Source: Methylacidiphilum caldifontis (GTDB lineage: Bacteria > Verrucomicrobiota > Verrucomicrobiia > Methylacidiphilales > CAMAQI01). From it: a DNA stretch of 39,666 bases. Location: positions 1 through 39,666 of the forward strand of contig CAMAQI010000002.1 in NCBI GenBank assembly GCA_945860255.1, in the 5' to 3' direction. The notes below the pieces were generated by a model. The model ran no database searches and had not been told where the DNA came from. It saw only the letters and a list, made by a program, of their open reading frames with translations. The translations under genes and the position numbers were made by a program. Of this stretch, positions 290 to 16,264 are shown piece by piece; within the stretch, counting starts at the first letter, position 1; the number at the start of each line of letters is the position of its first letter.

Positions 290-619
290 TCATAAGCTTT
301 GAGTCAATATTGTCGAGGGCATATCGGGAGGAGATGATAAAAAAACCTGTAGATTCAATGCCTCGGGAACGGCATGCGATTGAGACAACGCGGTCATTAC
401 GATTCCACTTCCCATTCCGACCACAAATGCGATCGCAAGCCCTGCCGAAAGAATCCGGGGACTGAAGATAAAATGAGGCAGAAAGTCCACCCACGTTTTT
501 TGTCCCGACGGACGATTCCGAATTTCCCTCCACACATTTTGCGAAAGGGTTGAAGGAAGGGAAGGAATCGGGCGCTTCTGAAGCTGCTTTAAAAGTTTAT
601 CAAATCGTTGTTCTTCCAT
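290..619 (-). CDS. Anti-sigma-factor-like single-pass membrane protein
   Basis: 109 aa with one TM segment. N-terminus LPSTLSQNVWREIR resembles ECF anti-sigma partners. No sigma factor gene is adjacent. Confidence 0.4.
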   Translation of the reverse strand: MEEQRFDKLLKQLQKRPIPSLPSTLSQNVWREIRNRPSGQKTWVDFLPHFIFSPRILSAGLAIAFVVGMGSGIVMTALSQSHAVPEALNLQVFLSSPPDMPSTILTQSL

Positions 620-681
620 AGATCTCTATTAACGAAAAAAATCTTCATCTCCCTCAAAAAATAAATCTGGGATAAAGGAAG

Positions 682-1062
682 TTATGAAATTTTGGGTGGG
701 GGCGTGGGGATCTCAGAAATATAGCTTTTAAAAGAGAACTCCCTCGCGGGATATTCTAACTCCAAAGCATCCCGAGAAGAGGAAAAGAGGAAAACCTGAG
801 GCATTATTAGGGAAGAAACCATGAACCAACCGGAACAATGAGGAGCACAAGGACAACGAGAATGTTCGACACAGCGGGCTTCGTCAGAAACGTCCGAAGC
901 TATTTCATTTTCCGGACAATGCGAACAATCCATCAATTGCAGAGGATTCTCCACGACAAACTCAGAAAACGAACCTTGCGCAGGAATCGCTAATACGACC
1001 CCTAAAACACTCATGAATGTCCAAAGAATGAATTTCACTAAACTGACTTTAAACTCAAACAC
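682..1062 (-). CDS. Hypothetical Cys/His-rich exported protein
   Basis: ORF with a hydrophobic N-terminus and a CSHCPEN...CVEHSRCPCAPHCSG cluster. No family recognised. Confidence 0.3.
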   Translation of the reverse strand: MFEFKVSLVKFILWTFMSVLGVVLAIPAQGSFSEFVVENPLQLMDCSHCPENEIASDVSDEARCVEHSRCPCAPHCSGWFMVSSLIMPQVFLFSSSRDALELEYPAREFSFKSYISEIPTPPPKIS

Positions 1063-1347
1063 ACGTTTTGCAAACGATATTGTTTTTTCGAGGACTCAAA
1101 AACAAGTCGGCTTTACCAAGCTGGTAGAATCATATACTGGAGTCCAAGACCTGACACCTTCCACCTTTGCGTATTTTATAAGCCCTCCTCTTTTATGTCT
1201 TGTTGATCAGAATGATCAATTTATTATATTGGTCATGGATTCCAAAATTATTCAAACAGTAATCCCCTTCGGAACTACCAAGGTTAGAAAAATTCAATCT
1301 CCCACCAAGACCCAGTCCCTCAGTTGACGGAGGCTATGAGACATTTT

Positions 1348-2925
1348 ATGAAAAAAATAAATAATCCAATCCTTAAGGGATTTAATCCCGATCCTTCCAT
1401 TATCCGTGTCGGAAATGATTTTTATATTGCCACCAGTACATTTGAGTGGCTACCCGGGATTCCTATTTATCACTCAACGGACCTAATTCATTGGAAGTTA
1501 ATAAGTCATGTTTTTTCGGGAAATCCCCCTTTTAATCTACGAGGGGTCGTTGATTCTGCTGGATTATGGGCTCCCTCCTTGAGTTATCACGATGGAGTTT
1601 TCTGGGTGGTTTACACCGTCGTTCACAATCGCCTCGGTAACTTTAAGGATGTTCATAATTATTTAGTAACCTCCCCAGATATCCATGGCCCTTGGTCAGA
1701 GCCCGTTCGCCTCAATTCCAGTGGCTTTGATCCCTCTCTTTTTCATGATTCGGATGGAAGAAAATGGCTTTTGAATATACAATGGGATTTTCGATTAAAT
1801 CACCCTCGCTTCGGAGGAATTGTTCTTCAGGAGTATGATTCCCAGAAGAACTCTCTTATAGGATCTCCCTCAATCATTTTGAAAAAAAAGCAACTAATTG
1901 AAGGTCCGAACCTCTATTTTTATAACGGCTATTATTATCTCATGCTCGCAGAGGGGGGGACGAGTTGGACTCATGCTATTTCCATGGCACGCTCGAAAAA
2001 TATGCTTGGTCCTTATGAGTGCGACCCCCAATCCGTCCTGCTCACTTCTTATGATAATGAGGAACTGGCACTCCAAAAGGCAGGACATGGCGAGATTGTA
2101 CAGCTTGCCTCTGGAGAATGGTACTTAGCACATTTGGCGTCGAGACCGCTTGGAAAAGGGGAGAAACGTCGCTGTATTCTCGGTCGCGAAACTTGTCTTC
2201 AGCGAGTGGAGTGGTCTCCTGATCAATGGCTGCGATTATCTCAGGGGGGAAATCATCCTGACATTGAGATTCCTGTTTCCGATACATTGAAGGAAAGTCC
2301 CTCGTCCGAATTTTTTGTTAGAGATGACTTTGATCTTCCAAAGCTCGATCTTTGCTGGTGTACACTCCGTGTTCCTTGTGAAGATTTCTGGGTGAATCTC
2401 AGTGAAAGACCTAGTTACCTGCGCCTTAGGGGACGTGAATCGATGCAATCGCTTTACGAGCAAAACCTCGTAGCAAAACGATTGCAATCGTTTCAATGTG
2501 TGGTGGAAACCTGCATCGAATTTGAGCCCCAACATTTTTCCCAAATGGCAGGCTTGATTTGCTGGTATGATACCAAGACTCATTACTACCTGCGAGTGAC
2601 TCATGATGAAATAAAAGGGAAGATTCTAGGAATTATTTTTTCCGATGACGGAGTTTATGGTGAAATTGAGGACTCATTACTTGTTGTTCAAGATTGGGAA
2701 AGGATCTATCTTCGTGCCCAAATCGATCGAGATAATCTTCAGTTCACAGTTTCAAAAAACGAATCAGATTGGATCAAGATCGGACCTGTTCTTGAAATGA
2801 GCAAGCTTTCAGATGACTATGGAAAAGGTCTTCATTTTACGGGGACATTTGTAGGTCTATGCGCTCAGGATCTCAATGGAACACGAGCGATTGCGGATTT
2901 TGACTACTTTCTCATCACTTATTAA
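1348..2925 (+). CDS. Glycoside hydrolase family 43 beta-xylosidase/alpha-L-arabinofuranosidase
   Basis: NPILKGFNPDPSIIRVGNDFYIATSTFEWLPGIPIYHSTDLIHWKL is the classic GH43 XynB-type N-terminus. A C-terminal beta-sandwich domain is present. The ORF is open from a TTG at 1324; ATGs lie at 1336 and 1348. Confidence 0.9.
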   Translation: MKKINNPILKGFNPDPSIIRVGNDFYIATSTFEWLPGIPIYHSTDLIHWKLISHVFSGNPPFNLRGVVDSAGLWAPSLSYHDGVFWVVYTVVHNRLGNFKDVHNYLVTSPDIHGPWSEPVRLNSSGFDPSLFHDSDGRKWLLNIQWDFRLNHPRFGGIVLQEYDSQKNSLIGSPSIILKKKQLIEGPNLYFYNGYYYLMLAEGGTSWTHAISMARSKNMLGPYECDPQSVLLTSYDNEELALQKAGHGEIVQLASGEWYLAHLASRPLGKGEKRRCILGRETCLQRVEWSPDQWLRLSQGGNHPDIEIPVSDTLKESPSSEFFVRDDFDLPKLDLCWCTLRVPCEDFWVNLSERPSYLRLRGRESMQSLYEQNLVAKRLQSFQCVVETCIEFEPQHFSQMAGLICWYDTKTHYYLRVTHDEIKGKILGIIFSDDGVYGEIEDSLLVVQDWERIYLRAQIDRDNLQFTVSKNESDWIKIGPVLEMSKLSDDYGKGLHFTGTFVGLCAQDLNGTRAIADFDYFLITY

Positions 2926-3014
2926 TCAATTCTAAGAACTCTCCAAACACACTGTCTGAAATAAAGAAGCCCTATACTGGGTTCAATACCAGACACTTTG
3001 CACCTTTACGTATT

Positions 3015-3329
3015 TTATAAGCTCTTCATTAAACGTACAAAAAGTCCTGCATGAACGAGTTGTTCGCCTCTCAAAACATGAAGAATGAATAGTTTCTTCC
3101 CTTCGATTCTGTAAAAGAGTCGGCATGGTGAAATAACGAGTTGTCGATAGGGCATCCCGCGCAATTCTGGAGGAGACGATCCAAGTTTTGGAAATCGCTT
3201 CAAATTCTCCACTTTTTCAAAAATGCGAACAACAAGCTTTTTAGCGGCTTCTGGTTTATCTAACGCAATATAATCTGCGATGACGTCGATATCCTGAATT
3301 GCTGCCTCTGTCCAAATCAGTTCAACCAT
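3015..3329 (-). CDS. parE: Type II toxin, ParE/RelE family
   Basis: 104 aa with the ParE-like pattern (IWTEAAIQDIDVIADYI ... FYRIEGKKLFILHVL). Overlaps the upstream antitoxin by 13 nt. Confidence 0.8.
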   Translation of the reverse strand: MVELIWTEAAIQDIDVIADYIALDKPEAAKKLVVRIFEKVENLKRFPKLGSSPPELRGMPYRQLVISPCRLFYRIEGKKLFILHVLRGEQLVHAGLFVRLMKSL

Positions 3330-3574
3330 CTTTTCAATTTCGTTTTTGCTTGTTCATGAGAAATGATCCGCCCTCCTTGAACAGCTTTCTCTCCTCGTGC
3401 AATTCCCTCTAAAATTCGAATCCTATTGCAAAGTCTCTCAAACGTCTGAATGTCGACAAGATATGCGGCTGGACGACCGTGCTCCGTAATCAAAACAGTA
3501 TCTTTGGTCTCTTTAAGATCTGAAAGGATTCGTGTCGCTTGCCGTTTCAGAGTCGTCACCAATTCCGTTTTCAT
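3317..3574 (-). CDS. Type II antitoxin, Phd/YefM family
   Basis: LITEHGRPAAYLVDIQTFERL core motif. It lies upstream of the ParE-like toxin and overlaps it. Confidence 0.8.
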   Translation of the reverse strand: MKTELVTTLKRQATRILSDLKETKDTVLITEHGRPAAYLVDIQTFERLCNRIRILEGIARGEKAVQGGRIISHEQAKTKLKRWLN

Positions 3575-3581
3575 GAGTGCT

Positions 3582-3610
3582 ACAATAGTATCACTTTAAA
3601 GAGGCGTCAA
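3582..3610 (-). promoter_or_regulatory. Sigma70-like promoter placed for a leaderless Phd/ParE transcript
   Basis: Minus strand reads TTGACG, 17 nt, TATTGT, 7 nt, ATG(3574). Confidence 0.5.
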
Positions 3611-3823
3611 AATCTTTTTGATTCAGGCTTTTTTCCAATGAAGAAAGGTCCAGTATTTTCGAATCGGCTCCCGACTTCTCCGCTGAATACCACTTAATGA
3701 GAGCGTCATACGCCCTCATTGGCACATAATCCGTCATCTCTGGATTTTCCCTATAAGTCTTCGTCACTAAATACTCGAAGTTTGGAGTACATTCTGATAT
3801 TTTTCTTCGACATTCATTCTTTT

Positions 3824-5548
3824 TTACTTCCGTGGTGTTGCACGGCTCGCCACTTTAAAAATTAAATCAAGTACCTCAACCACTTCTGGGTCAATTTCTT
3901 TGAGAGGAATGAAATCGGTCAAACCGTGGTAATCGCGCTTGAAAATTTGCTGAGGCGTCCCCAACCGTTCATAGTAAGTCGAGAAAAGGGGATCTAAAAA
4001 ATCGTCCGTCACTTTGATGTCGGATCCCCATGGATCCGGTCTCTTTGCGATTTTCAACGCATTCACCAACTCGTCGATCCATTGTTCCATGATCGAACGA
4101 CGTGTTTTTCGCTCCGCATCGTCCACCAGATCCCCTTCGATCAAACCTTGCTCAATTAAAGCAAGAATACTTGCCTTTGAGGTAATGTAGTTCTCTATTT
4201 CCCGTTTTCTCCACATTTTTTCGACAAGGACTGGATTTTTATCGAGTTCCTTTTTAAGCCTGTCAAAGATCGCCACTCCGACCAAATCCGACTTTGCCTC
4301 CTTTAATCCCCAAAAATGATCGCGGGCACCCTGAGGTTGATTATTCCCCAGATAAATAGCGGGTGTTCCCTCGCTGAGATAAATTTTGGACGGATGATTC
4401 AACCTATCTGCGAAACGACGCAAAATGGCGAGATCCGTCGACCCCTCCAGATAAATCATCCAGCCCTTTTGCTCGGCAAGGTAATAATCCGACATTCGAA
4501 TGGATTCCAAAGACTTCCTGACCTGGTTTCTTGAGCGAACGTCGATGCGATGGGGTTTCCCAATAAAAGCCACCACCACATCCCTGTCCGCCGCCTCCTG
4601 TAAAACAACCTCCGAGTGACTCGCTGCAATAATCTGGGAATTTTGTTTTTCCGCCAGCCCAGTTAAAAGATTGTAAACATCCCGTTGTCTTAAAATTTCC
4701 AAATGCGCATCCGGCTCATCCAATAAGATAATGGATTGAGGATTGGATAAAACTGCGCATAAAATCAACAACACCTGCTGAAAACCCCTCCCACTTGCTG
4801 AAATATCGAGTACTGCTCCTGATTTTTCCCCATAAGAAAGGGTGATCAAGGACCGTTCCTTGATATAAATAGGATCGTTGAGTTGAACTCCAAAAAGCTC
4901 CGCAACCTTTTCCCGAAGTAATTTCCACCCTTCACCCTGTTCCTTTGAATAGAGAAGCCAACAAAGATTTCTCAAAACTTCAGCCGTCCTTCCCTCCCCA
5001 ATATGAAAATTGATCTCTCCAAGCTCTTTTCGGAATTCTTGTCCCGCCAAACCCGACATGGACGGAATAAATACGATTTGCTGTTGTCTTGCCCCCTCGG
5101 GGACACGCAATCCGGAATCCTCATTCAATCGACAATAAAATGATTCTTCATTCGCATAATAAAAATCCATTGAACAGAGCCACGGTTTATCCTGATGAAC
5201 CCCCTCCGCGACCAACTGGATCAAAACTTTTTCAGTGGTTTGTTTCCCTTCATTTATTTTGTTGTCTTGCGTACGCAGTTCGCTCCATAAAAGTTTTGCA
5301 CTCGGGACAGGAACTGTATTTAAATCCTTTCGGTTGATGGTGACGCCAGATCGCTCGCTCGCCTTGCTTGAATCCCTCTTTTCAACCCATTTTCTCCATC
5401 CAAGATCCCAAAGCGTCAATGCCTGAAGTGCCGAAGTTTTTCCCGAATTGTTTGGCCCAATGAATACGACTGCGTTTCCAAGATCCAATGTAGCAGATTC
5501 CAATTTTTTAAAATTTTTGATGGTGAATTTTGTGATCATTTTAGACAC
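3824..5548 (-). CDS. ABC/SMC-type ATPase fused to a Toprim/DUF4435-like C-terminal domain (OLD / GajA / fused PARIS-like)
   Basis: Walker A GPNNSGKT, signature-like SGRGFQQ, Walker B ILLDEPDAHLE, H-loop SHSE. The C-terminal ~210 aa carry YLEGSTD, AIFDRL and KREIENY motifs. Confidence 0.6.
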   Translation of the reverse strand: MSKMITKFTIKNFKKLESATLDLGNAVVFIGPNNSGKTSALQALTLWDLGWRKWVEKRDSSKASERSGVTINRKDLNTVPVPSAKLLWSELRTQDNKINEGKQTTEKVLIQLVAEGVHQDKPWLCSMDFYYANEESFYCRLNEDSGLRVPEGARQQQIVFIPSMSGLAGQEFRKELGEINFHIGEGRTAEVLRNLCWLLYSKEQGEGWKLLREKVAELFGVQLNDPIYIKERSLITLSYGEKSGAVLDISASGRGFQQVLLILCAVLSNPQSIILLDEPDAHLEILRQRDVYNLLTGLAEKQNSQIIAASHSEVVLQEAADRDVVVAFIGKPHRIDVRSRNQVRKSLESIRMSDYYLAEQKGWMIYLEGSTDLAILRRFADRLNHPSKIYLSEGTPAIYLGNNQPQGARDHFWGLKEAKSDLVGVAIFDRLKKELDKNPVLVEKMWRKREIENYITSKASILALIEQGLIEGDLVDDAERKTRRSIMEQWIDELVNALKIAKRPDPWGSDIKVTDDFLDPLFSTYYERLGTPQQIFKRDYHGLTDFIPLKEIDPEVVEVLDLIFKVASRATPRK

Positions 5549-5642
5549 TCCATTTTTTCATTGCATACGCCTAATATCTGATGCGCTTATGTAAACTTTG
5601 TCCAATATATTTCAATTTTTTTGAAATCGAGATGTACCATGT

Positions 5643-8297
5643 TTAATACGCACTCTGCATTCCCCCCACTGCTTTGGCGAGATCGCTCAGCGATTGATCG
5701 TCGGGAAGCACCACCGTGAACCGACATCGCCCTTCCGCATCGGTCTCCAAGCAATTCCGAAATCCCTTTAATACAGCTTCCTCAATCTCTGAATTCAACC
5801 CTTCACGCTGAGGAATGACTTTGCTGATAAATTTAAAGACGGAGGCCAGCATCTCACCCCCCGCTTTCTGGACTTCCTCTTTGTTAACCTCAGAACCAAT
5901 CACTGGGGTCTCAAGTGTTGGTGTCGGTTTTTGCCCGATCAACACTTCCAAACGACGTTTGAGCTCTTCCATCCCACTGGAAAGTGTGACCTCCTTGACT
6001 TCGGACCCAAAATCCAAAGCAGCCATCGAGAGTTCCTTTTTCGCTCCTAGGGTGGCAAGCAGATTCTCTTCGAGGGTCCTCTCGGTCACAAGAATGAAAA
6101 CCTCAACCGTGTTCTTTTGCCCCATCCGATGCGCACGAGCGATACGTTGCTCGAGCACGGCCGGATTCCAAGGGAGATCGACATTGACCACGGTGTTCGC
6201 CGACTGGAGATTCAACCCCGTCGATCCAGCATTGGTGGTCAGAAAAAGTCGGCACCCTGGATCTTCCTGAAATTCTTTGACCAGACCTTTCCGTTTCTTC
6301 TGCGGAACACTTCCATCCAAACGCACAAAACGGAGTTTTCGTTTTACGAGAAGGGGCTCAATGAGATTGAGCATCGTCGTCCATTCGGAGAAGAGTACTA
6401 TTTTACGCCCGCTCTCGTCGACGAACCGGTCAAAGAGTTCCTCCAGTTTTTTAAGTTTCGTCGAATGTCCTGGTGCGTCCTTAATCACCAGTTCCGTGCT
6501 GTCGGCGACCATGCGGCACATCATCAACTCCTTTTGAAGCTGGATGAGATCCATCTCTGTCAAAAACCGTTTTTTGATGATCGAACTTACTTTTCTCATA
6601 TGCCCGATATGTTGCATCTCCTGCTCTTCCGAGGGAGGAATCCGGACGATCTGTGTGACCCTCGGAGGCATCTCCTTCAATACCAGATCACGCGTGCGGC
6701 GAAGAAGGATCGGTTTTAACTGACGGCGAAGGTGATCGAGTTCCTTGTATCCGAGAATCTTCCCTTTCTCGTCGGCCACACGGTGCCTGTGAAAAAACCG
6801 AAATGCGGGTCCCAGCAAACGCTCGTCCACAAATTCAACAACGGAGTAGAGATCGTCCAAACGATTTTCCAATGGCGTTCCGCTCAAAACTAGAGCGTAT
6901 TTTGATTTCAATTTTTTGATCGTTGCGGAGGTTTTCGCTTCCCAGTTTTTGATCCGTTGCCCCTCGTCCAGAATGATGAGATCCCATTTCACTGGCTCGA
7001 TCGCGACCAAATCGCGCAAAACCTGTTCGTAGTTGCAGATCGTGTAAAAAACAGGCTTTGCATATTGACTGTGACGATCCATCAAACTTCCCGTGATCGC
7101 CTGGGAATCCCGATCACAAAACCGCCGGATCTCCGACTCCCATTGGGACTTCAGCGAAGTCGGACAAATCACCAATACTTTTTGGATTCCGATTTCTTGT
7201 GCGAGGAGTTCTGCGACACCGATCCCTTGAATGGTTTTGCCCAACCCCATTTCGTCGGCCAAAATCGATCGCCCCGCCCCCACCGCAAACCCGATGCCAT
7301 CCATCTGGTATGGGAGAAGGGTCGTTTTCAGGAGTTTCTCCCGAAGCGGATGCTTTGCGGGATTCTGTCGAATCTCCAAACTCAATTGTTGGAGTCGCTC
7401 TTTCCGCAAAATCTTTTCGACATACTCCTCAGCATCGGGATAAATCACCACCTGCTCCCCGGATTTTTCCAATTTCCGGATCGTCCCCAATAGCGATCTC
7501 ACCTCTTCCGCATTCGGATCAACCTGCCTGAAGGGTCTCACTCTTGTCGAGGAATCTTGGTCGGAGGGAAAACTGAGCGAGAGCTCGGTCTCTTTTCCAT
7601 AGCGGAGATGAAGCGTGTAATGTTTGCGTTGATGCGGCTTTGCCAAAACTTTTTTCGAAAATGCATCCTTCACAAAATTTTCAACCCGCATCAAATGCTT
7701 GCAGGTTCCCAAAGTATTTTTTCGAAAATCAGGACAGGTGCAAAATGAGGTTCCCATTTCCAATCCACGGAGAGCGACTCGATATGTTTTTCCAGATTCC
7801 TGACTAAATACATCATAATCCGTCCATGGTCTTTTCTCCTCTTTCGAGGTCACTGTCATCTTCTCTTTCAAAGCCCGTTCACGACGCTCCACAAGCATCC
7901 GTCTTTCCAACTGCTTCTCGTCCAACAGCTCCATGGGGATTTTATCCTCCGGATCCTTCGCTAGGCCGAGCGGTGTCTTTTGATCCAGCAAATAGGTCAA
8001 CGCCGCTCCCGCCTCGGGGATACACTTTTTCCCTTCGGAGCTTCCCCACTTTAATCCAAGTTTGGACCCGAGGTCCTCCTCCAACCAGAACTCGTAATGG
8101 CGAGGGATAAAAAATGAGACCGTAAAACGCTTATCCGTGAGACGAACATCAGAAGGATCGATCTCAAATTTTCCCCCTTCTGCCATCGCTTTCCGGCCTT
8201 TGGAACCAAGCAATTTGCAAGATTGGATGTAATTCAATCGGGAAAGTCGGTCGAAAAAAGTGAGTTTTTTTGCGGAACGAGTAGCGTAGGGATTCAT
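5643..8297 (-). CDS. SNF2/RAD54-family SF2 helicase with N-terminal SWIM zinc finger
   Basis: SWIM CTCPDFRKNTLGTCKH. Helicase motifs LADEMGLGKT, DEGQRIKN, LSGTPLEN, TNAGSTGLNL, QRIARAHRMGQ. The first in-frame ATG is at 8297 (a TTG lies at 8336). Confidence 0.85.
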   Translation of the reverse strand: MNPYATRSAKKLTFFDRLSRLNYIQSCKLLGSKGRKAMAEGGKFEIDPSDVRLTDKRFTVSFFIPRHYEFWLEEDLGSKLGLKWGSSEGKKCIPEAGAALTYLLDQKTPLGLAKDPEDKIPMELLDEKQLERRMLVERRERALKEKMTVTSKEEKRPWTDYDVFSQESGKTYRVALRGLEMGTSFCTCPDFRKNTLGTCKHLMRVENFVKDAFSKKVLAKPHQRKHYTLHLRYGKETELSLSFPSDQDSSTRVRPFRQVDPNAEEVRSLLGTIRKLEKSGEQVVIYPDAEEYVEKILRKERLQQLSLEIRQNPAKHPLREKLLKTTLLPYQMDGIGFAVGAGRSILADEMGLGKTIQGIGVAELLAQEIGIQKVLVICPTSLKSQWESEIRRFCDRDSQAITGSLMDRHSQYAKPVFYTICNYEQVLRDLVAIEPVKWDLIILDEGQRIKNWEAKTSATIKKLKSKYALVLSGTPLENRLDDLYSVVEFVDERLLGPAFRFFHRHRVADEKGKILGYKELDHLRRQLKPILLRRTRDLVLKEMPPRVTQIVRIPPSEEQEMQHIGHMRKVSSIIKKRFLTEMDLIQLQKELMMCRMVADSTELVIKDAPGHSTKLKKLEELFDRFVDESGRKIVLFSEWTTMLNLIEPLLVKRKLRFVRLDGSVPQKKRKGLVKEFQEDPGCRLFLTTNAGSTGLNLQSANTVVNVDLPWNPAVLEQRIARAHRMGQKNTVEVFILVTERTLEENLLATLGAKKELSMAALDFGSEVKEVTLSSGMEELKRRLEVLIGQKPTPTLETPVIGSEVNKEEVQKAGGEMLASVFKFISKVIPQREGLNSEIEEAVLKGFRNCLETDAEGRCRFTVVLPDDQSLSDLAKAVGGMQSAY

Positions 8298-8391
8298 GTT
8301 TTGAGGATGAATCCATGTAGAACCTCCGCAAGCCAAAAACTCGCCTTTTTATTCACTTGTGTTCAGATATTTAAATGTCTGAAATTCTTCT

Positions 8392-8991
8392 ATGTCTGAT
8401 AACACCCCTTCTTCCTCAAGCGATCAAGATCCCAATCGATCTGATTTTTCGCCGATTTTTGACGACTTTGTCCGCCCGCTTCTCGACTATGATTCTTGGA
8501 AGAACTCTGAGATGAAAGATGTCATGCGGATCGGCATCTATCTCTGGAATAGCAACCGTCTATCGCCCGAGGCGTATTCCGAACTTCAATCCTTTCTCTT
8601 TCAATCCATCGATCAGGAGCTGCGGATTCTTTTTCAAGGAATGATCGGCTCGAGAACCGGTTTTTTCAAAACTCATTCCGTCTCCATTGAGGATGGAAAA
8701 GTCATGGTCTCCAAAAAATTTTACAACCTCGAATTGAAATTCGGGGACTATCCTCCCGAAATCCTTTTCCCTGAATATATCTGCGAAGCGATGATGGCTG
8801 ATTTTGTCAGAAGTCTTGATGAGTTAGGATTGATAGAACGTCAAATATATGTTCAATTTATGACCCGCTATCAATCAAGGCTCGAGCGCCTTATTGCAAA
8901 AAATGAAAAGCGAATAGCAGAAAACGAAGCGAAAATAGCAGAAGCAAAAACGGCGCTTAAAGATTTTCCCCAAACAATCGAATGTAAGTGA
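8392..8991 (+). CDS. Hypothetical protein with C-terminal coiled coil
   Basis: 199-aa ORF divergent from the SNF2 gene. Has a KNEKRIAENEAKIAEAK tail. No family recognised. Confidence 0.4.
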   Translation: MSDNTPSSSSDQDPNRSDFSPIFDDFVRPLLDYDSWKNSEMKDVMRIGIYLWNSNRLSPEAYSELQSFLFQSIDQELRILFQGMIGSRTGFFKTHSVSIEDGKVMVSKKFYNLELKFGDYPPEILFPEYICEAMMADFVRSLDELGLIERQIYVQFMTRYQSRLERLIAKNEKRIAENEAKIAEAKTALKDFPQTIECK

Positions 8992-9013
8992 CATCGCCAT
9001 TGGCGATAGGCCA

Positions 9014-9163
9014 TCAAACCTTTTCGCGAAGCGAGTCCTCTTCACGGATTTGCTTCATTGCGGCTTTACGTTCACGTTTGGCGACCTTGCGTTTATTAAA
9101 TGGTCGCAAATGTTTCCACCATTCGGGCGGCGATGTTAGAGTATCTTTTCGAGTATGAGCCAT
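9014..9163 (-). CDS. Possible small basic protein (49 aa)
   Basis: MAHTRKDTLTSPPEWWKHLRPFNKRKVAKRERK... preceded on the minus strand by TTGTCA, 17 nt, TATGTT, 10 nt, ATG. Support is weak. Confidence 0.25.
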   Translation of the reverse strand: MAHTRKDTLTSPPEWWKHLRPFNKRKVAKRERKAAMKQIREEDSLREKV

Positions 9164-9334
9164 ACTTGTGACAAACATATATGAAAGTGAAGAAATTGAC
9201 AAGATCACCAGACAAAACTAGGTTGAATTCATGAAAGTCGTCAATGTTCAAGAGGCAAAGATCACTCACGATCAAAACTTGAACCTTATGGCGCAATCAT
9301 CCTTTGGACTTAATTTTTTTCTTTAAGTTTGATT

Positions 9335-10612
9335 TTAAAAAGATCGTGCAGCCCCCATTAAAAATTTGCGCACGTTTTGCCAGCCCACTCCTTCATGATC
9401 CTCGCGGAAATGGGTGTCTAGGCTGAGAAGCATCCGGGGGTATTCATCACCTATCGCCCGCAGAGACCTCAACTCCCTCTCCAGAGTAGATTTTTCTCCC
9501 AGCAGATAGGCCACTTGAATATAGATCCGCCGCCCCTCACGTGATGCCACAAAATCAATTTCGTTCTCCCCCCATCTTCCAACTTCAACCGAATATCCAT
9601 TCGCTTTCAAGTGAAGATAAACGACCGCTTCCAGTTGAATGCCGATATCCTGATCCCGAAATCCAAGAATGGCGTTTCGGATCCCCGCATCCGCTGCATA
9701 ATATTTTTCATGCGTTTCCAGAATTTTTCGTCCCCGAAGATCATGCCGTCGAACCCGGTGCAGCACCCGTGCATCCTCAAAATATTGAAGATATTCCAAA
9801 ATGGTGTCGACGCTCGTTTTGATTTGCTGCGAGCGTAAGTAGTCCGAGATTCGTTTGGAAGAAACCGGAGACCCCGATGTATCCAAAACATATCGAAGCA
9901 CATTTTCAAGCAATCGAACATTACGGATCGCATGGCGGCTGACCACATCCTTAAGAACCACCGTGTTGCCAATCGCCGAGAGATAATCAAACACCGCCAC
10001 ATCTTCGCGTGAAAGCGCGTGAATTCCAGGCATGCCCCCGTGGCGTAAAAATCGTGCGAAGGCCTCCTCCCCCTCCTTTTCCCCAGAAAACTCGAGAAAC
10101 TCAGGATAAGTCAAAGGGTGAACCGGAATCTCAATATAGCGACCCGTTAGCGCCGTTGCGAGCTCCCCCGAAAAAACTTTTGCATTGGACCCTGTCAAAT
10201 AAACATCGACTTCCCCTTCCTTCAGTAGCGAAGCCACCGCACGCTCCCATCCCTGAATTTCCTGAACCTCATCGACCATCAGAACCTTTTTTCCCTTGGC
10301 TTTGGAAAAGCGTTGCTTGGCCTCCCGATGTAGATCCACTCCTGTTCTGATGGAGTCCCACTCCATCTTCTCTTTGTCGACCTCCAGCAATGTCATCCCC
10401 GGATAAGCTTTCTTGAGCTCCGTAGCCCAAAGTCGTAGAAGAGTGCTCTTCCCGACACGGCGCATCCCGGTCAATATCTTGATCAGCGGCTTGAAAGCAA
10501 ACTGCCCTAACACGGGCCTATAACGATTTCGATTATGCACGAAAAAGATAATATCATGCAAATTTATTCGTGTATAGTCGAAATATCTTAAATGGAATTC
10601 CCGATAGCGCAT
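9335..10612 (-). CDS. AAA+ ATPase with DUF4143-type C-terminal domain
   Basis: GMRRVGKSTLL Walker A and LMVDEVQEIQGWERAV Walker B region. The C-terminal region is typical of the archaeal-ATPase/DUF4143 family. Confidence 0.75.
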   Translation of the reverse strand: MRYREFHLRYFDYTRINLHDIIFFVHNRNRYRPVLGQFAFKPLIKILTGMRRVGKSTLLRLWATELKKAYPGMTLLEVDKEKMEWDSIRTGVDLHREAKQRFSKAKGKKVLMVDEVQEIQGWERAVASLLKEGEVDVYLTGSNAKVFSGELATALTGRYIEIPVHPLTYPEFLEFSGEKEGEEAFARFLRHGGMPGIHALSREDVAVFDYLSAIGNTVVLKDVVSRHAIRNVRLLENVLRYVLDTSGSPVSSKRISDYLRSQQIKTSVDTILEYLQYFEDARVLHRVRRHDLRGRKILETHEKYYAADAGIRNAILGFRDQDIGIQLEAVVYLHLKANGYSVEVGRWGENEIDFVASREGRRIYIQVAYLLGEKSTLERELRSLRAIGDEYPRMLLSLDTHFREDHEGVGWQNVRKFLMGAARSF

Positions 10613-10675
10613 TTATCCACCATCGGATTGAAATACATCTCTCTTCCATGATCTCCTACTTTGTCAACTGATTCT

Positions 10676-10698
10676 AGGGACAAAAGACATCATGACAC
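10676..10698. repeat. Left copy of a perfect 23-bp inverted repeat (agggacaaaagacatcatgacac)
   Basis: Exact reverse complement of 13897-13919. Confidence 0.95.
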
Positions 10699-10718
10699 GG
10701 GGCCCCTTCCGGGGCCCC
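10699..10718 (-). terminator. GC-rich hairpin downstream of the 640-aa ORF
   Basis: ggggcccc-ttcc-ggggcccc, 15 nt past the stop codon. There is no clear U-tract on the minus strand. Confidence 0.4.
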
Positions 10719-10733
10719 TTCTAGATTGTTTCA

Positions 10734-12656
10734 TTATTTTTCACTAGTACTTGATTTTCTTCTTTTTGAATCTACGAAACACTGGGCGTACTTTTTAGCC
10801 TCGTCACAAAGATCTTGATAACGCTTTAGCTGATCCCACTTTTCAATTAATGGACTTTTGTTTGGATTCTCATTCTTAAAAAAAATTGAAAATTTCTTTT
10901 TTTCCGGAGGTTTAAAAAAATGATGGAGATATTCTGTTTTCTGAACGGTCTCTTGATACTTTTCATCTGACTTCATCTTCATCATAGCGGATCTCTTTTG
11001 AGATAAAGCAGATCGACTTGGTACCTTATAGTGGATTTGACTCCACCAATGGGGAATGTTTTGGGGTTCCATTTTTTTGAGAGTCGCCAATCCTTTTTCG
11101 GCAAAACGAAGATACGCTTCCACTTTTATAACCGCTTCATCCCAATCATATTCTCCAATGGGAGAAGGTGCTAAATGAGCTCGCAATATTTTTTTGTCCT
11201 CGTGATTTCTACCATAGGTCTTACACCACACCCCGGCGAGATCTATCGCCAATTGATCCAGTGATTCCAATGAATATTTGAATGCTCTTTGATCAACACC
11301 TTTAGAGTCATCTTTGTACTCGAGCAGCCAATTTTTATTCAAGCCCGCTAGTCGGATTTTTCTTTTACCCAGTTGTTCTAAGTCTGCCCAAAAATGTGCC
11401 GCTCTTTTCTTTTGTTCCACTGGAATATCTTGTTCTTTACACAGAAAATCGCCTTGCCACGTTTCTTGAATATATTTTTTCCAAAACGCTGAGGGGGTTT
11501 TAAACTCGGGCGGATAAGAGCATTTTTTATGGATAATCTCTCTAAAAACAGACCAAACTATTTTCTTCTCTTTAACTTCCAGTCTATCAATCGCATCAAA
11601 TAAATGGAGTCCACTTAAAGTTATCGCTTTGTCCATCGTTGGGAATTCTTCACGAATATTAAAGAGAAAATCGGAGGCCGATTCTTTTCGCTGCCACGAT
11701 TCCAAATCTAAATCCTTATTGGATGTTTCAAAAAGATAAGCGAGAAGTAAATCTCCGAGGAAAGCAGCTAAGCGATCTAGGGGCTTTAAATTCTCATTAT
11801 CTTGATGATCGAGATCAACATCATTTAAAAAATCCCTCCATTTTTCTACCTGATCATTTGATAAACTTCTTTTGATCGATTGATCTCTGGATATTTTGTT
11901 ACTTCTAAAGAGATCGCACTCCACAAGCTGGTTTTCACCGACAAGCTTCTTCCATTGCGTCAAATGATCATCATTGTTGAAAATATTTTTAAATACCGAA
12001 GCCGCTTTATTTTGAGGTTGAATGGCTTTTACGGGATTGAAATTGAACCATCGGCAAAGTCGTTGAGCCTCTTTTTTTTGTTCATCTTCATCTTTCCCAT
12101 CCAGTTCAATAAGACGAACAACAATCAATTTTTCATTCAACTTTTGGGTATCTAGATTTATGGTTGATTTTATCTTTTCCCATTCTTCCTTTAAATCCAT
12201 TAAAGTGAGTTCTCTTGATCCTCGTTCCGTCGACAAGAATTCCGCATATTCCTTGTAAGCTGTTTTATCTTCTTCCTTCTTCTTTAATGTTGAATTTTGA
12301 CTAACGAGAAGCAGTCGTCTGTTCCCACTCAGTGCCACCATTTTACCCTCAATCTCAGCAACAATGGGAGGGCCACTGCTTGCATCGGGATTGCTGTTCA
12401 CTAAAAAATGCGGTTTAAAATGCTCTACGATCGATCGATTGAGCTCGATTTCACCTTCCTTTTCGTACCAGCGGTCATTTTCAATCGGGAATTCAGGATT
12501 TCTTTCAATGGGATTTCCAGTCGTCGATAAGCTTTTTTCTAATTTGGTTGAGGCGCATATATCGCCTAAATTCATAAATTTGTAATTGTAACCAACTTTC
12601 TCAAATTCTCCTCCAGATGGCTTGCATATCAGGATTTTTGAATCGGTTTCATTCAT
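10734..12656 (-). CDS. Orphan 640-aa protein with N-terminal ParB/Srx-like domain
   Basis: NPIERNPEFP ... LNRSIVEHF ... PPIVAEIEGKMVALSGNRRLLLV matches the ParB N-terminal domain layout (GxRR box). The rest is Lys/Trp-rich and helical with no recognised family. The gene is markedly AT-rich relative to its neighbours. Confidence 0.5.
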   Translation of the reverse strand: MNETDSKILICKPSGGEFEKVGYNYKFMNLGDICASTKLEKSLSTTGNPIERNPEFPIENDRWYEKEGEIELNRSIVEHFKPHFLVNSNPDASSGPPIVAEIEGKMVALSGNRRLLLVSQNSTLKKKEEDKTAYKEYAEFLSTERGSRELTLMDLKEEWEKIKSTINLDTQKLNEKLIVVRLIELDGKDEDEQKKEAQRLCRWFNFNPVKAIQPQNKAASVFKNIFNNDDHLTQWKKLVGENQLVECDLFRSNKISRDQSIKRSLSNDQVEKWRDFLNDVDLDHQDNENLKPLDRLAAFLGDLLLAYLFETSNKDLDLESWQRKESASDFLFNIREEFPTMDKAITLSGLHLFDAIDRLEVKEKKIVWSVFREIIHKKCSYPPEFKTPSAFWKKYIQETWQGDFLCKEQDIPVEQKKRAAHFWADLEQLGKRKIRLAGLNKNWLLEYKDDSKGVDQRAFKYSLESLDQLAIDLAGVWCKTYGRNHEDKKILRAHLAPSPIGEYDWDEAVIKVEAYLRFAEKGLATLKKMEPQNIPHWWSQIHYKVPSRSALSQKRSAMMKMKSDEKYQETVQKTEYLHHFFKPPEKKKFSIFFKNENPNKSPLIEKWDQLKRYQDLCDEAKKYAQCFVDSKRRKSSTSEK

Positions 12657-12710
12657 ATTGTTTAGAGGAACTAGTTAAGAGAAATTAAATTAATAGTGGT
12701 TTTGCGTCAA
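12657..12710 (-). promoter_or_regulatory. Promoter plus bipartite repeat in the 25-nt leader of the 640-aa ORF
   Basis: Minus strand reads TTGACG (12705-12710), 17 nt, TAATTT (12682-12687), then tctcttaac-tagtt-cctctaaaca (12659-12682) ending 2 nt before the ATG. Confidence 0.45.
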
Positions 12711-12924
12711 GTTTTCTGCTCCGAAATATAAGCCCATGATGCCCTCGTATATTAATAACATGAGAGAAAATCACTATCAATTCTACCGTCCAACCTCTTT
12801 TAACGCATGATATGTGGATTTGTATTCCATCAAGAAAAGACACGTAGTCTATCCGTAAGCAAAATTGCGTAATCTCTAATCAAGGAGGCAAGTTAACAAA
12901 GTATCTCCGTAATAAAGGAATCCT

Positions 12925-13167
12925 ATGCACAAACGAACTAATTATTCTCTAAACAATATTTCTCTAAACATTCAGCTCGAATTTCAATTCATCAATGAAT
13001 TCTTTGATAACTCAATCCCAGAAATTCCCTATCTACAAATAAGTAAGAATAAGCCTACTCCTGAGAGCGAAAGAATTGAAGCAATTCGTGGTGCTAATGA
13101 AGATAGCGCTGATGCCGAATGGGAAATTTACCTAGAAAACCTATCACCTCCTGATGAGGATTATTGA
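12925..13167 (+). CDS. Small acidic protein (80 aa), paralog 1
   Basis: SD-like aagga 5 nt before the ATG. The N-terminus YSLNNISLNIQLEF is shared with the 13551 ORF. Confidence 0.4.
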   Translation: MHKRTNYSLNNISLNIQLEFQFINEFFDNSIPEIPYLQISKNKPTPESERIEAIRGANEDSADAEWEIYLENLSPPDEDY

Positions 13168-13550
13168 TAAGTCACTTATAACAAAGAGTTTAAACAATTC
13201 CACTGTTTTGTAGAACCGTTTTAAGCCCAATAAAATCCACAGTAATTACCCTCGTATATTATAAGTATGAGCAAAAAATACCTCCATATCCTTAGATTAT
13301 TAAAATATTCTTATATATACCTTTACAACAGGTACTTACGAACAATTTATTTCTATTTCGAACATGTAAAAAGCTATAATAATTTACGATTGAAATTTTT
13401 TTATCCTTTTTTGGCAACTCAGTCAATTTCCTTAATTTTTCCTGTAATACTTATTGATATGAACAAAAACGTTATCAATCAACATTTGCGTAATCTTATA
13501 CCAGTGAGACATCTCATCACCATTGGTATCTAAAAGAAAAAAGGAATAAT

Positions 13551-13829
13551 ATGATCAATATAAAAATTAAAGTATATTCTCTTAACTCATTTCCTCTTAA
13601 CATTCAGATGGATTTATTCAGTGATGATCCTCTAATAGTGACTACTCCAATTGTTAGAAAAAAATCACAAAAAAAACGATATAATAACAGAAAAGAGCAA
13701 TTGTACGCAAATCCTGACGAGTATTTCGTGAGCGATCTATTGCGAGAAGGCCACATTAAATGTCCTCGTCTTGAAAGGTTCTTGTCTGCTAAAATTCAAT
13801 CTCTAAGACAATCCAAAAAGATTTCGTAA
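13551..13829 (+). CDS. Small basic protein (92 aa), paralog 2
   Basis: Same SD spacing as paralog 1. The N-terminus YSLNSFPLNIQMDLF is shared with the 12925 ORF. Confidence 0.4.
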   Translation: MINIKIKVYSLNSFPLNIQMDLFSDDPLIVTTPIVRKKSQKKRYNNRKEQLYANPDEYFVSDLLREGHIKCPRLERFLSAKIQSLRQSKKIS

Positions 13830-13896
13830 TTGTTTGAATAAGTTTAAACACTCTTTTAACTTATTCAATGTCACAACTTTTATCGTAAAAGGCGCT

Positions 13897-13919
13897 GTGT
13901 CATGATGTCTTTTGTCCCT
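13897..13919. repeat. Right copy of the perfect 23-bp inverted repeat
   Basis: gtgtcatgatgtcttttgtccct is the exact reverse complement of 10676-10698. Confidence 0.95.
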
Positions 13920-14007
13920 GCCAGCCCATTCCTTTAATAATCAATCTTTTATTAAAGAAACTTGCTATTTTCTTTAATAAGAATATTCTTATTAAAGGGT
14001 TTATCGT

Positions 14008-15168
14008 ATGATTCGATCTGAAACAGGTAATTACAGCATTTCCACTTTAGGGGGAGAGACCGTAAAAGCATTTATTCCTTTATCGCTTCCTCCTGTCCCT
14101 CCCTTGGATCTGACGGGATCTCGCCAAAGGCTACTCGAACGCGCGACGATTGCCGTCGGACGACTCGACAGTGTCGCCACATTGTTACCTGATCCGGATC
14201 TTTTTCTTTATGCGTATGTTCGTCGGGAAGCGGTTCTCTCCTCACAAATTGAAGGAACCCAATCCTCCCTGTCGGATCTTTTACTTTTTGAAATCGATGA
14301 AGTACCTGGGGTTCCTTTTGATGATGTGGTTGAAGTCTCCAATTACATCGCTGCGTTAAACCACGGGATGAATCGCCTCAAAGAAGGTTTTCCCTTGAGT
14401 ACCCGTCTTCTTCGAGAGATGCATGCTCAACTCATGTCCAGGGGTCGTGGAAGTGATAAGAATCCCGGGGAGTTTCGTCGAAGCCAAAATTGGATCGGTG
14501 GCACAAGACCGGGTAATGCACACTTTGTTCCCCCTCCACCCCATGAAGTTGATCGATGTATGGGCGATCTTGAAAAATTTCTTCATGATGATCACTCCAC
14601 TCCACTCCTCCTCAAAGCGGCTCTTGCCCATGTTCAATTTGAAACCATCCATCCCTTCCTCGATGGGAATGGACGATTGGGACGGCTCTTGATTGCTTTG
14701 CTTCTTCATGAAGGAGGCCTTCTTTCTCTTCCACTTCTTTATTTAAGTCTTTATCTCAAAAAGCATCGGAATATTTATTACGAAAAACTGGACATCGTCC
14801 GCACTCAAGGGGATTGGGAAAGCTGGTTAGATTTCTTTCTCGAAGGGGTTGAAGAAACTGCATTGGGAGCGGTTGAAACTGTTCGACGTTTGGGAGCACT
14901 TTTTGAAAAGGATCGAAAACAGGTGCAAGAAACCAAACGTCTTGCATCCAACATCCTTCGCGTCTTTCACGAATTTGAAAAACGCCCCATATTGAATTTA
15001 AAACAGATCTGCCGTGATCATCGAATGACTTTTCCAACAGCCACAAAAGCGGTTTCATCCCTCATCGAAATGGGAATCATCCGAGAAATGACCGGTCAAA
15101 AACGAAATCGATTTTTCGTTTATGATGCTTATCTCAAAATTCTGAATGAAGGGGGAGATCCTTTGTAA
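14008..15168 (+). CDS. Fic-family protein (AMPylase-type) with N-terminal inhibitory motif and C-terminal wHTH-like region
   Basis: Catalytic HPFLDGNGRLGRLL (HPFx[D/E]GNGRxxR). SSQIEG matches the (S/T)xxxE(G/N) autoinhibition motif. Confidence 0.9.
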   Translation: MIRSETGNYSISTLGGETVKAFIPLSLPPVPPLDLTGSRQRLLERATIAVGRLDSVATLLPDPDLFLYAYVRREAVLSSQIEGTQSSLSDLLLFEIDEVPGVPFDDVVEVSNYIAALNHGMNRLKEGFPLSTRLLREMHAQLMSRGRGSDKNPGEFRRSQNWIGGTRPGNAHFVPPPPHEVDRCMGDLEKFLHDDHSTPLLLKAALAHVQFETIHPFLDGNGRLGRLLIALLLHEGGLLSLPLLYLSLYLKKHRNIYYEKLDIVRTQGDWESWLDFFLEGVEETALGAVETVRRLGALFEKDRKQVQETKRLASNILRVFHEFEKRPILNLKQICRDHRMTFPTATKAVSSLIEMGIIREMTGQKRNRFFVYDAYLKILNEGGDPL

Positions 15169-15169
15169 A

Positions 15170-16264
15170 CTACGCCGTGCGCATCGGCATGATCACGTAC
15201 AGGAAGGGCTTGCTGTACTTGATGACGCCGGGGCTGAGTTCGTCGATGAAGTCGAAGAAGATTTCGTCGGAGTCAATGTGTCTCAAGGGATCTTGTAAAT
15301 AGGTCGGATTGAAGGCGATGGAGAATTCTTTCCCTTTATAATTCACAGGGATCGATTCTTTGGCCTCTCCGACTTCGGGGGTGTTGGACATGATGTCCAA
15401 ATTGTTTTGGCTGAAACTCAAGCGAATCGAATTTGTTTTATCGTTCGATAACAAGGAGACACGACGGGTGGCATTAAGGAGCAATTCGCGCTCGATGATG
15501 ATTCGATCCTTGGCCTCGGGGGGAATGACTTGTTTGTAGTTCGGATATTTTCCTTCGACGAGTTTCGAGACGAGGAAGGTCTCACCAAGATCAAAAGCGA
15601 TCTGATTGTCTGAGAGCGAAATAGTTAACGGTTCCTCTTGTCCCAAAATCCGTTGGAGTTCGTTGACCGCTTTTGTCGGAAGAATCGCATCGGTTTCATT
15701 TCCTTTGGCAAATTCCATCTCATGCTCAACAAGGGCGAGACGACGTCCATCGGTGGCGACCATCGTTAATTTGGTGTCATGGAAACTGAGGAATACACCG
15801 TTGAGAACGTAACGACTTTCGTCGTTGGAGATCGCATAAGCGGTCCGGCGAAGCATATCGCGGAAGGTCCCTTGGGTCATTTTGAACTGACGAGCGCCTT
15901 CGGTTTTTGGGAAGGCAGGAAAATCTTCTGCAGGAAGTCCAAGAATTTTGAAATAAGACGAAGCTGCTCGGATCGTCGCTTGATTCTCATCATTGACTTC
16001 AAGCGTGAGTTCGACTGCGGGAAGTTCACGGATGATACTAAAGAAACGTTTTGCTGGAAGTGTCGTTGTTCCGGGTTTAATGACTTCGCAAGGAATCGAG
16101 GCCCGAATTCCCATATCGAGATCGGTGGTCGAGATGGTCAGCTTGCCATTCTCTGCGACCAAGAGGGCATTTCCGAGGATGGGGAGGGTTGTGCGTGAGG
16201 CAACAACGTTTTGGACCATTTGTAGGCCTGCAATTAAAGCTTCTTTCCCAATGACACATTTCAT
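15170..16264 (-). CDS. dnaN: DNA polymerase III beta sliding clamp
   Basis: 364 aa. RTTLPILGNALLVAENGKLTISTTDLDMGI and the overall three-domain length are typical. Confidence 0.95.
   Translation of the reverse strand: MKCVIGKEALIAGLQMVQNVVASRTTLPILGNALLVAENGKLTISTTDLDMGIRASIPCEVIKPGTTTLPAKRFFSIIRELPAVELTLEVNDENQATIRAASSYFKILGLPAEDFPAFPKTEGARQFKMTQGTFRDMLRRTAYAISNDESRYVLNGVFLSFHDTKLTMVATDGRRLALVEHEMEFAKGNETDAILPTKAVNELQRILGQEEPLTISLSDNQIAFDLGETFLVSKLVEGKYPNYKQVIPPEAKDRIIIERELLLNATRRVSLLSNDKTNSIRLSFSQNNLDIMSNTPEVGEAKESIPVNYKGKEFSIAFNPTYLQDPLRHIDSDEIFFDFIDELSPGVIKYSKPFLYVIMPMRTA

Follow-up and report, generated by a model that had tools for sequence, protein, structure and literature searches.

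Proteins of the OLD family join an N-terminal ABC-type ATPase to a Toprim nuclease domain, and the classes of the family differ in the genes that accompany them. Class 1 OLDs are single genes (PMC10568477), whereas in Gabija (Class 2) OLD-family proteins pair with helicases, and an extra helical insert enlarges the Class 2 Toprim domains (PMC10568477). In PARIS (Class 4), single-gene ariAB fusions are on record (PMC9122126, PMC12392090), and the system is detected through the domain DUF4435 (PF14491) with a Pfam threshold of 27 bits (PMC9122126). The activities described within the family are also diverse; Vc OLD defends as a DNA nickase that blocks phage replication (PMC12392090), TsOLD (PMC10568477) and BpOLD (PMC6755086) degrade DNA, P2 Old cuts tRNA (PMC12445682), and AriB reportedly cuts tRNA as well (PMC11464382, PMC12409363). 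In this work we analyzed a stretch of 39,666 nucleotides (nt) of Methylacidiphilum caldifontis (contig CAMAQI010000002.1, assembly GCA_945860255.1; hereafter the window, with coordinates counted from its start), where a first-pass annotation had proposed that the gene of an ATPase-Toprim fusion and the adjacent gene of an SNF2-SWIM helicase form a defence pair. From this analysis we conclude that the ATPase gene (3824-5539) is probably a stand-alone gene for an OLD-family nuclease from a divergent clade, of Class 1 type by its context, and that the helicase is not its partner. The main features of the locus are the following:

3824-5539, minus strand: gene of the ATPase and Toprim-like protein, 571 amino acids (aa) from ATG, alternative GTG start at 5548 (basis: open reading frame (ORF), homologue starts, Pfam, PADLOC, Foldseek)
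4514-5539, minus strand: N-terminal ABC/SMC-type ATPase domain, residues about 4-345 in the numbering of the 574-aa form, used throughout (basis: Pfam, motifs, conservation)
3827-4501, minus strand: predicted C-terminal Toprim-like and helical domain, residues 350-574 (basis: AlphaFold2 (AF2) model, Foldseek, invariant residues)
5540-5642, minus strand: AT-rich spacer of 103 nt, from the SNF2 stop codon to the ATPase start codon
5643-8297, minus strand: gene of an SNF2-family helicase with an N-terminal SWIM zinc finger, 884 aa, SWIM at 7695-7742 and helicase core at about 5997-7319; judged an unrelated neighbour

The ORF list bears out that two co-directional minus-strand ORFs, 3824-5548 (574 aa from a GTG codon) and 5643-8336, lie with a gap of 94 nt between the genes, as had been described. 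The ATPase gene stands, but probably with another start; the ATG at 5539 is preferred over the GTG at 5548 because all the ATPase homologues begin with MIT[RK]F, and the protein most likely has 571 aa, with a gap of 103 nt. For the helicase, the start at 8297 (MNPYATRS..., 884 aa) that had been chosen agrees with the lengths of its homologues, 883-900 aa. In the spacer no terminator was predicted and a promoter scan gave no sigma-70-type match; a search for an upstream element conserved among the ATPase relatives found none.

The ATPase and its C-terminal domain

The motifs quoted in the first-pass annotation are all present, and their coordinates were checked by re-translation. In the N-terminal domain these are:

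5435-5458, minus strand: Walker A, GPNNSGKT
4775-4795, minus strand: signature-like motif, SGRGFQQ
4703-4729, minus strand: Walker B/D-loop, ILLDEPDAH
4610-4621, minus strand: H-loop, SHSE

Together they make up the N-terminal ABC-type ATPase that is found in OLD proteins, and Pfam agrees with the ABC/SMC-type assignment made from the motifs (AAA_15, 1e-20; AAA_21, 1.9e-16; SMC_N, 1.2e-10). K37 of Walker A, D277 and E278 of Walker B, and H311 are each kept in 78-79 of 79 relatives that are 48-68% identical. The best PADLOC profiles for the protein were AriA (5e-24), NsnB, AriAB (2.6e-19), GajA (1e-13) and Old (1e-12). The closest relative by sequence in the PDB is TsOLD (6p74, 1.7e-9), with a similarity that runs through the Walker A region only. 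The AF2 model of the full-length protein has a predicted local distance difference test score (pLDDT) of 69.6, and its best Foldseek matches are GajA (8sm3_A, 8e-10), TsOLD (6p74, 3e-9) and the retron-Eco8 OLD, followed by PtuA and SMC heads.

In the C-terminal domain the candidate catalytic residues are located in five motifs:

4433-4453, minus strand: YLEGSTD (E368/D372)
4256-4267, minus strand: FDRL (D429)
4187-4204, minus strand: REIENY (E450/E452)
4004-4021, minus strand: DIKVTD (K512)
3926-3943, minus strand: FKRDYH (K537)

Each of these seven residues is invariant in 78-79 of the 79 relatives. The Toprim domain of OLD proteins is marked by a parallel sheet of four strands, an invariant Glu that follows beta1, and a DxD motif. 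The two-metal site of BpOLD is formed by E400/E404, D455, T506/E508 and K562 (PMC6755086), among which E404 and T506/E508 are additional ligands of metal B and K562 is the catalytic Lys of the helical domain; E368/D372, D429, E450/E452 and K512/K537 correspond to this site by motif order only, at comparable spacing. Structure prediction and Foldseek, which the first-pass annotation had proposed for this domain, point in the same direction. The isolated domain (about 225 aa) is modelled by AF2 with a pLDDT of 88.9 and a predicted template modelling score (pTM) of 0.85, in a beta-alpha-beta-alpha-beta-beta arrangement followed by helices, and its best matches are the C-terminal regions of the Xanthomonas (Xcc) and Burkholderia (Bp) OLD proteins, with probabilities of 0.98 and 0.96 and at template modelling (TM) scores of 0.39-0.47 and E-values of about 0.02. 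Lower matches are TsOLD (probability 0.82), AriB (0.30-0.38) and GajA, all with E ≥ 0.02, and the viral BFVD library gave no meaningful match. The ATPase-Toprim fusion of OLD, Gabija or PARIS kind that had been proposed is thus supported by PADLOC and by the Foldseek searches with both models, and the 571-aa protein is probably a divergent OLD-family ATPase-nuclease, with a fold assignment that is likewise probable.

A number of results speak against this reading. The Toprim assignment is statistically insecure given the E-values of about 0.02 and TM scores of 0.39-0.47 obtained with the isolated domain. The Pfam search for DUF4435 or OLD-like_TOPRIM in this domain, also proposed in the first-pass annotation, returned no match of any kind at E ≤ 10, and among 40 family members at E ≤ 1 DUF4435 was absent and OLD-like_TOPRIM appeared once (E=0.044); of the Toprim/DUF4435 core that had been recognized by eye, a Toprim-like topology and a structural resemblance to OLD proteins are predicted, but the domain is not one that Pfam can identify, and the DUF4435 assignment is not supported. 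A C-terminal profile built from 40 sequences matched only noise among the PDB sequences (cullin, Fic, E>0.09), and its alignment to P2 Old with hhalign covered the EG-x-T-[DE] motif alone, without significance; the phage collection held 5 records of P2 Old homologues, too few for a profile of that protein. In addition, the DxD motif is degenerate (D429-R-L), as its second Asp is missing and one invariant Asp remains, and residue 432 (4253-4255) is K in the window protein versus D or E in 61 of the 79 relatives, a change that could weaken metal binding in this copy. Two aspects of the gene context weigh on the same side: the very high conservation across phyla together with insertion between housekeeping genes is unusual for defence genes, and the synteny is compatible with a lineage-specific functional link to the helicase, and co-transcription is possible, as no terminator is predicted in the spacer.

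The window gene resembles the Class 1 OLDs (P2 Old, TsOLD of Thermus scotoductus, Vc OLD of Vibrio cholerae) in being a single gene without a conserved partner and, by motif order, in showing the catalytic pattern E-x3-[DE], D, acidic-x-E, Lys; TsOLD is its best PDB relative by sequence and the second by fold. It differs from TsOLD and P2 Old in that the sequence similarity is confined to the Walker A region, and from the class as a whole in that its C-terminal domain is missed by the Pfam model OLD-like_TOPRIM, its DxD motif retains a single invariant Asp, and its clade shows an unusual degree of conservation and frequently sits within other operons.

Among the alternatives, the best placed is that the gene is a fused PARIS system, with an ATPase that would act as the sensor of phage anti-restriction proteins (Ocr, for example) and a Toprim domain that would respond by cleaving host tRNA, aborting infection. 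The protein shares with AriAB the fusion of an AAA_15/AAA_21 ABC ATPase to a Toprim-like domain, a single-gene form for which there are precedents, and AriA and AriAB were its best PADLOC profiles. The AriAB alignment (67.4 bits) spans residues 270-467 and hence crosses the domain junction into the C-terminal domain, with a best stretch that covers only positions 330-533 of the 694 in the profile; when 40 isolated C-terminal domains were searched, AriAB was matched weakly in 8 (best E 1.2e-3) and AriB in 2, and AriB structures appear among the Foldseek matches. However, DUF4435, the domain that defines AriB, was undetected in the window protein (E ≤ 10) and in the 40 relatives (E ≤ 1), and the AriB structures fit the C-terminal domain less well than the C-terminal regions of OLD proteins do. 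When sequences were searched exhaustively with phmmer for the C-terminal domain, only 634 clusters at 50% identity were recovered, and the top 150 hits are proteins that are either full length (about 550-630 aa) or shorter and probably fragments; these belong to the clade of the protein itself and not to the large AriB family. Since, moreover, the best sequence match in the PDB is a Class 1 OLD, we regard a PARIS identity as unlikely.

Spread and gene contexts of the ATPase family

The ATPase family is a large one: a search with the full-length protein matched over 8000 clusters at 90% identity, and the gene is present in at least 497 species genomes. In public sources its members are mostly named 'AAA family ATPase', and in RefSeq one homologue carries the label 'ATP-dependent nuclease'. 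The members are 48-68% identical over at least eight phyla, with a mean column identity of 83% among the closest relatives, and yet the distribution is patchy and not lineage-wide.

The gene contexts were examined in the best 80 loci of a scan of genome contigs, each from a different species; these loci come from Verrucomicrobiota, Acidobacteriota, Planctomycetota, Chloroflexota, Pseudomonadota, Bacteroidota, Poribacteria and others. The commonest neighbours are the type III restriction-modification (R-M) genes mod and res, present in 11-14 loci with a varying gene order (by neighbour clustering, only 12 for mod and 11 for res), and about one fifth of the loci (about 15 of 80) lie inside or adjoin an R-M-type context. 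The ATPase gene nests in otherwise complete defence operons (type III R-M, Hma, DISARM-like), frequently with junctions of 0-20 nt; examples are HmaA-[ATPase]-HmaB-HmaC (L044, 6273-18719), DrmD-like SNF2-[ATPase]-type III Mod...Res (L029, 6940-17837), and nested loci that include the arrangement type III Res-[ATPase]-Mod (L011, L023 and L077, at about 10001). A literature search on type III R-M systems with an embedded OLD gene gave nothing specific. In other loci the gene is inserted as a bare ORF. The closest relatives (68% identity; L163/L165, 6001-7713) are wedged, with a 4-nt overlap, into the usual pair of PSCyt/PSD1 and DUF1501 genes, and further copies (L040, 878-2617; L060, 10001-11734) lie between unrelated housekeeping genes. 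These contexts comprise purine-nucleoside phosphorylase (PNP)/IleRS, HisK/IlvD, after GlnE and after LigA, with junctions of 0-30 nt; in L163/L165, L040 and L060 the stop codon of one gene overlaps the start codon of the next or lies directly against it, and neither mobility genes nor repeats were present there. The upstream neighbour is co-directional with the ATPase gene in 62 of 74 loci. No integrase flanks the gene, and a search for flanking repeats or a conserved non-coding element, as the signature of a mobile element, gave only short chance matches.

No conserved neighbouring partner was found in these loci, which is the situation of the Class 1 OLDs, and the lack of an obligate partner is the reason for the assignment to this class. 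Judged from these comparisons, the family appears to be a single-gene module and a divergent clade, one that is highly conserved and moves horizontally.

The same data could be read as those of a gene outside immunity, either a selfish element whose nuclease aids its spread or retention, or an OLD-type ATPase that serves the cell itself, as is reported for Cran1, a non-defence OLD ATPase of archaea (PMC12796447). The degree of identity across phyla, the bare-ORF insertions between housekeeping genes, the co-directional upstream genes and the lack of a flanking integrase or repeat would all suit such a gene. In contrast, the company of R-M-type operons in about one fifth of the loci, and of toxin-antitoxin (TA), SoFic and PDC-S01 genes around the window copy, is read as the usual signature of defence genes and therefore counts against it; in addition, no target-site or homing signature was found and the distribution is patchy, so a non-immune role seems improbable to us. 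We hold about as doubtful the more particular proposal that the clade is an autonomous mobile gene moving as a bare ORF, whose ATP-gated nuclease would promote its own insertion or retention in a homing- or addiction-like manner; this would explain the conservation across phyla, the 0-30 nt junctions with housekeeping genes and the nesting in defence operons.

The SNF2-SWIM helicase and the surrounding genes

The helicase was correctly recognized in the first-pass annotation as an SNF2 enzyme with a SWIM finger. Pfam identifies SNF2-rel_dom (7.7e-44) and Helicase_C (4.6e-25), and the SWIM finger, CTCPDFRKNTLGTCKH at 7695-7742, scores 16-17.9 bits, just under the cut-off of 19.6, and its C-x-C...C-x-H ligands are invariant in the homologues. 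The SWIM domain was reportedly described in bacterial SWI2/SNF2 ATPases by Makarova, Aravind and Koonin (2002), and the window helicase shows the combination of bacterial SNF2-SWIM helicases, an N-terminal C-x-C-x(n)-C-x-H finger and an SNF2 core. Its homologues, of about 890 aa and 54-57% identity, occur widely in Planctomycetota, Verrucomicrobiota and Acidobacteriota; a literature search for the function of bacterial SNF2-SWIM proteins gave nothing specific. ZorD, DpdE, DrmD and HmaA were rejected as its identity because PADLOC aligns the helicase core only (residues about 314-790), and the NCBIfam Snf2 equivalogs score 128-250 bits against cut-offs of 500-1500. Methylase, ZorABC, Dpd and Brx genes are absent from the annotated neighbours, and the helicase is accordingly not placed in Zorya, Dpd, DISARM, Hma or BREX.

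The first-pass annotation had named the occurrence of either gene without the other as grounds to refute their proposed partnership, and the co-occurrence data go against the pairing in both directions. No orthologue of the SNF2-SWIM gene was found up to 10 kb from the ATPase gene in any of the 80 ATPase loci, where upstream sequence of at least 2.8 kb was available in 62 of the 78 with a full-length copy. Conversely, none of 80 metagenomic loci collected with an alignment of the SWIM-containing N-terminal region as query contained an ATPase relative (an earlier metagenome scan with a single SNF2 protein as query had returned no loci), and no recurrent neighbour of the helicase emerged among them. 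The nearest helicase relative (P0122, locus L081; 87% identity) lies in the context Fic-SNF2-PIN/Phd-SET, without the ATPase, and the similarity between the DNA of this locus and the window ends no more than 15 nt from the stop codon of the SNF2 gene. The SNF2-ATPase arrangement is shared only by contigs of the same strain. Because the pairing is absent in both directions, it was rejected; the helicase, by the evidence of comparative gene order, adjoins the ATPase gene by chance, and the pair is therefore not to be carried forward as a defence system. The fallback offered in the first-pass annotation, that the SNF2-SWIM gene is an unrelated chromosomal gene, is the reading that the data favour.

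Separately from the ATPase, in 3 of the 80 helicase loci, including L149 (4858-9939), the SNF2-SWIM gene is preceded at a distance of 62 nt, in the same direction, by the gene of a P-loop protein of about 1693 aa (GHFGSGKSHF), which may be a genuine association of the helicase, distinct from the one proposed.

A defence system of a new kind that, like Gabija (GajA and GajB), consists of two genes but has an SF2 helicase in place of the superfamily 1 (SF1) enzyme would account for two co-directional genes separated by 94-103 nt in which no terminator is predicted, and helicase partners of OLD-family proteins do have the precedent of Gabija. Other SNF2-like genes occur within 10 kb of the ATPase gene in 6 of the 80 loci, with a similarity limited to the helicase core, and an SNF2-family helicase is found within a few kb in 5, directly upstream in 3. 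Nevertheless, these helicases lack a SWIM region and are either HmaA (1705 bits, full length) or proteins of DrmD-like type with NOV_C, and those of L044 and L029 are part of Hma or type III R-M sets that include a methylase and further components of their own. With the absence in both directions, a nearest orthologue that lacks the ATPase and an arrangement confined to one strain, such a system is very improbable, and a lineage-specific one born of the SNF2-SWIM pairing is much less likely than the autonomous mobile gene considered above. The comparison with Gabija leads to the same result: GajA is the top structural match of the full-length model and a helicase gene is next door, but this is an SF2 SNF2-SWIM protein and not the UvrD/PcrA/Rep-like SF1 helicase GajB, the gene on the other side is Phd/ParE, the two genes do not co-occur elsewhere, and the protein, with 571 aa, is no larger than Class 1 OLDs. 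As for the retron OLDs (Class 3), no reverse transcriptase domain was found in the neighbours or in the annotated ORFs at about 300-15168, and no scan for a retron non-coding RNA was made.

The pair is surrounded by Phd/ParE, GH43, a DUF4143 ATPase and Fic, and the neighbours named in the first-pass annotation (ParE/Phd, DUF4143 ATPase, Fic) are as described there. Other features of the window are:

9335-10612: DUF4143 ATPase, PADLOC candidate defence family PDC-S01 (5.8e-134)
10734-12656: ORF of 640 aa (orf640), no Pfam or PADLOC match
14008-15168: Fic/Fic_N protein, near full-length PADLOC match to SoFic (9.5e-122), a single-gene defence family
15170-16264, minus strand: dnaN
21356-22564: bacterial serpin gene, Pfam Serpin (3e-96)

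With ParE/Phd, a SoFic-type Fic and a PDC-S01 ATPase, the description of the region as resembling a defence island was reasonable, and surroundings of this kind explain why unrelated genes are adjacent here. Relative to L081, where Fic abuts SNF2, the window carries between these two genes a second insertion (8392-13930), which holds orf199 (no Pfam or PADLOC match), the DUF4143 ATPase, orf640 and an AT-rich stretch with a GC content of 0.31 at 13-14 kb that has small ORFs only. The adjacency of Fic and SNF2-SWIM is kept in L081, and in L141 a Fic gene is about 2 kb from the helicase. Two short segments look, from their similarity to L081, like remnants of rearrangement. One is a 53-nt piece (9261-9313) that matches the PIN toxin gene of L081 at its 3' end with 89% identity; this gene is downstream of SNF2 in L081, and the piece is upstream of SNF2 in the window. 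The other is a 58-aa ORF (3591-3767), between the ATPase gene and Phd, that resembles part of a 131-aa ORF found beyond Fic in L081.

The cumulative GC skew has its minimum at about 14-15 kb, where the orientation of the genes switches, and the ATPase-helicase pair is close to this switch and to dnaN. The chromosomal replication origin probably lies within the window or directly next to it; the DnaA-box consensus is not enriched in the AT-rich, origin-like region, and no dnaA gene was recognized. The serpin gene is located among glycosyltransferase genes and is unrelated to the ATPase and the helicase.

Proposed function

For the single-gene OLD nuclease that we favour, the following mechanism is suggested by analogy with the characterized members of the family. 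The ABC ATPase would most probably dimerise, and the binding and hydrolysis of ATP would gate the two-metal Toprim nuclease of the C-terminal domain, which, once activated, would cut nucleic acid, presumably during phage infection. The strict conservation of the two active sites is the argument for both activities being needed. The substrate could be DNA, nicked or degraded as by Vc OLD and TsOLD, or tRNA, cleaved as by P2 Old and AriB, and the sequence data do not choose between them. The clade would move as a bare ORF and land beside whatever gene is there; in this genome it would have landed downstream of the SNF2-SWIM helicase gene, in a variable region near the replication origin, among toxin-antitoxin and other defence-type genes. 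That the C-terminal domain is instead a non-catalytic regulatory or oligomerisation module of the ABC ATPase, as might be supposed from a DxD that is incomplete, Foldseek E-values above 0.01 and the lack of any profile that recognizes the domain at significance, is hardly credible for a beta-alpha-beta Toprim-like core with five invariant acidic residues and two invariant lysines at the positions expected of the OLD two-metal site, whose only high-probability structural matches are OLD nuclease domains and of which one homologue is named a nuclease in RefSeq.

A Gabija-like system based on an SNF2-SWIM helicase, if true, would have been a new defence architecture. What the comparisons support is a large, strongly conserved, OLD-like ATPase family with a predicted nuclease domain that the Pfam Toprim models miss, and the ATPase would thus represent a divergent and under-annotated clade within the known OLD family. 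The Class 1 OLD nucleases are the least understood class of the family, and a clade that is conserved and easily cloned is therefore a reasonable candidate for testing; it bears on the questions of whether an OLD protein alone defends and whether DNA or tRNA is cut.

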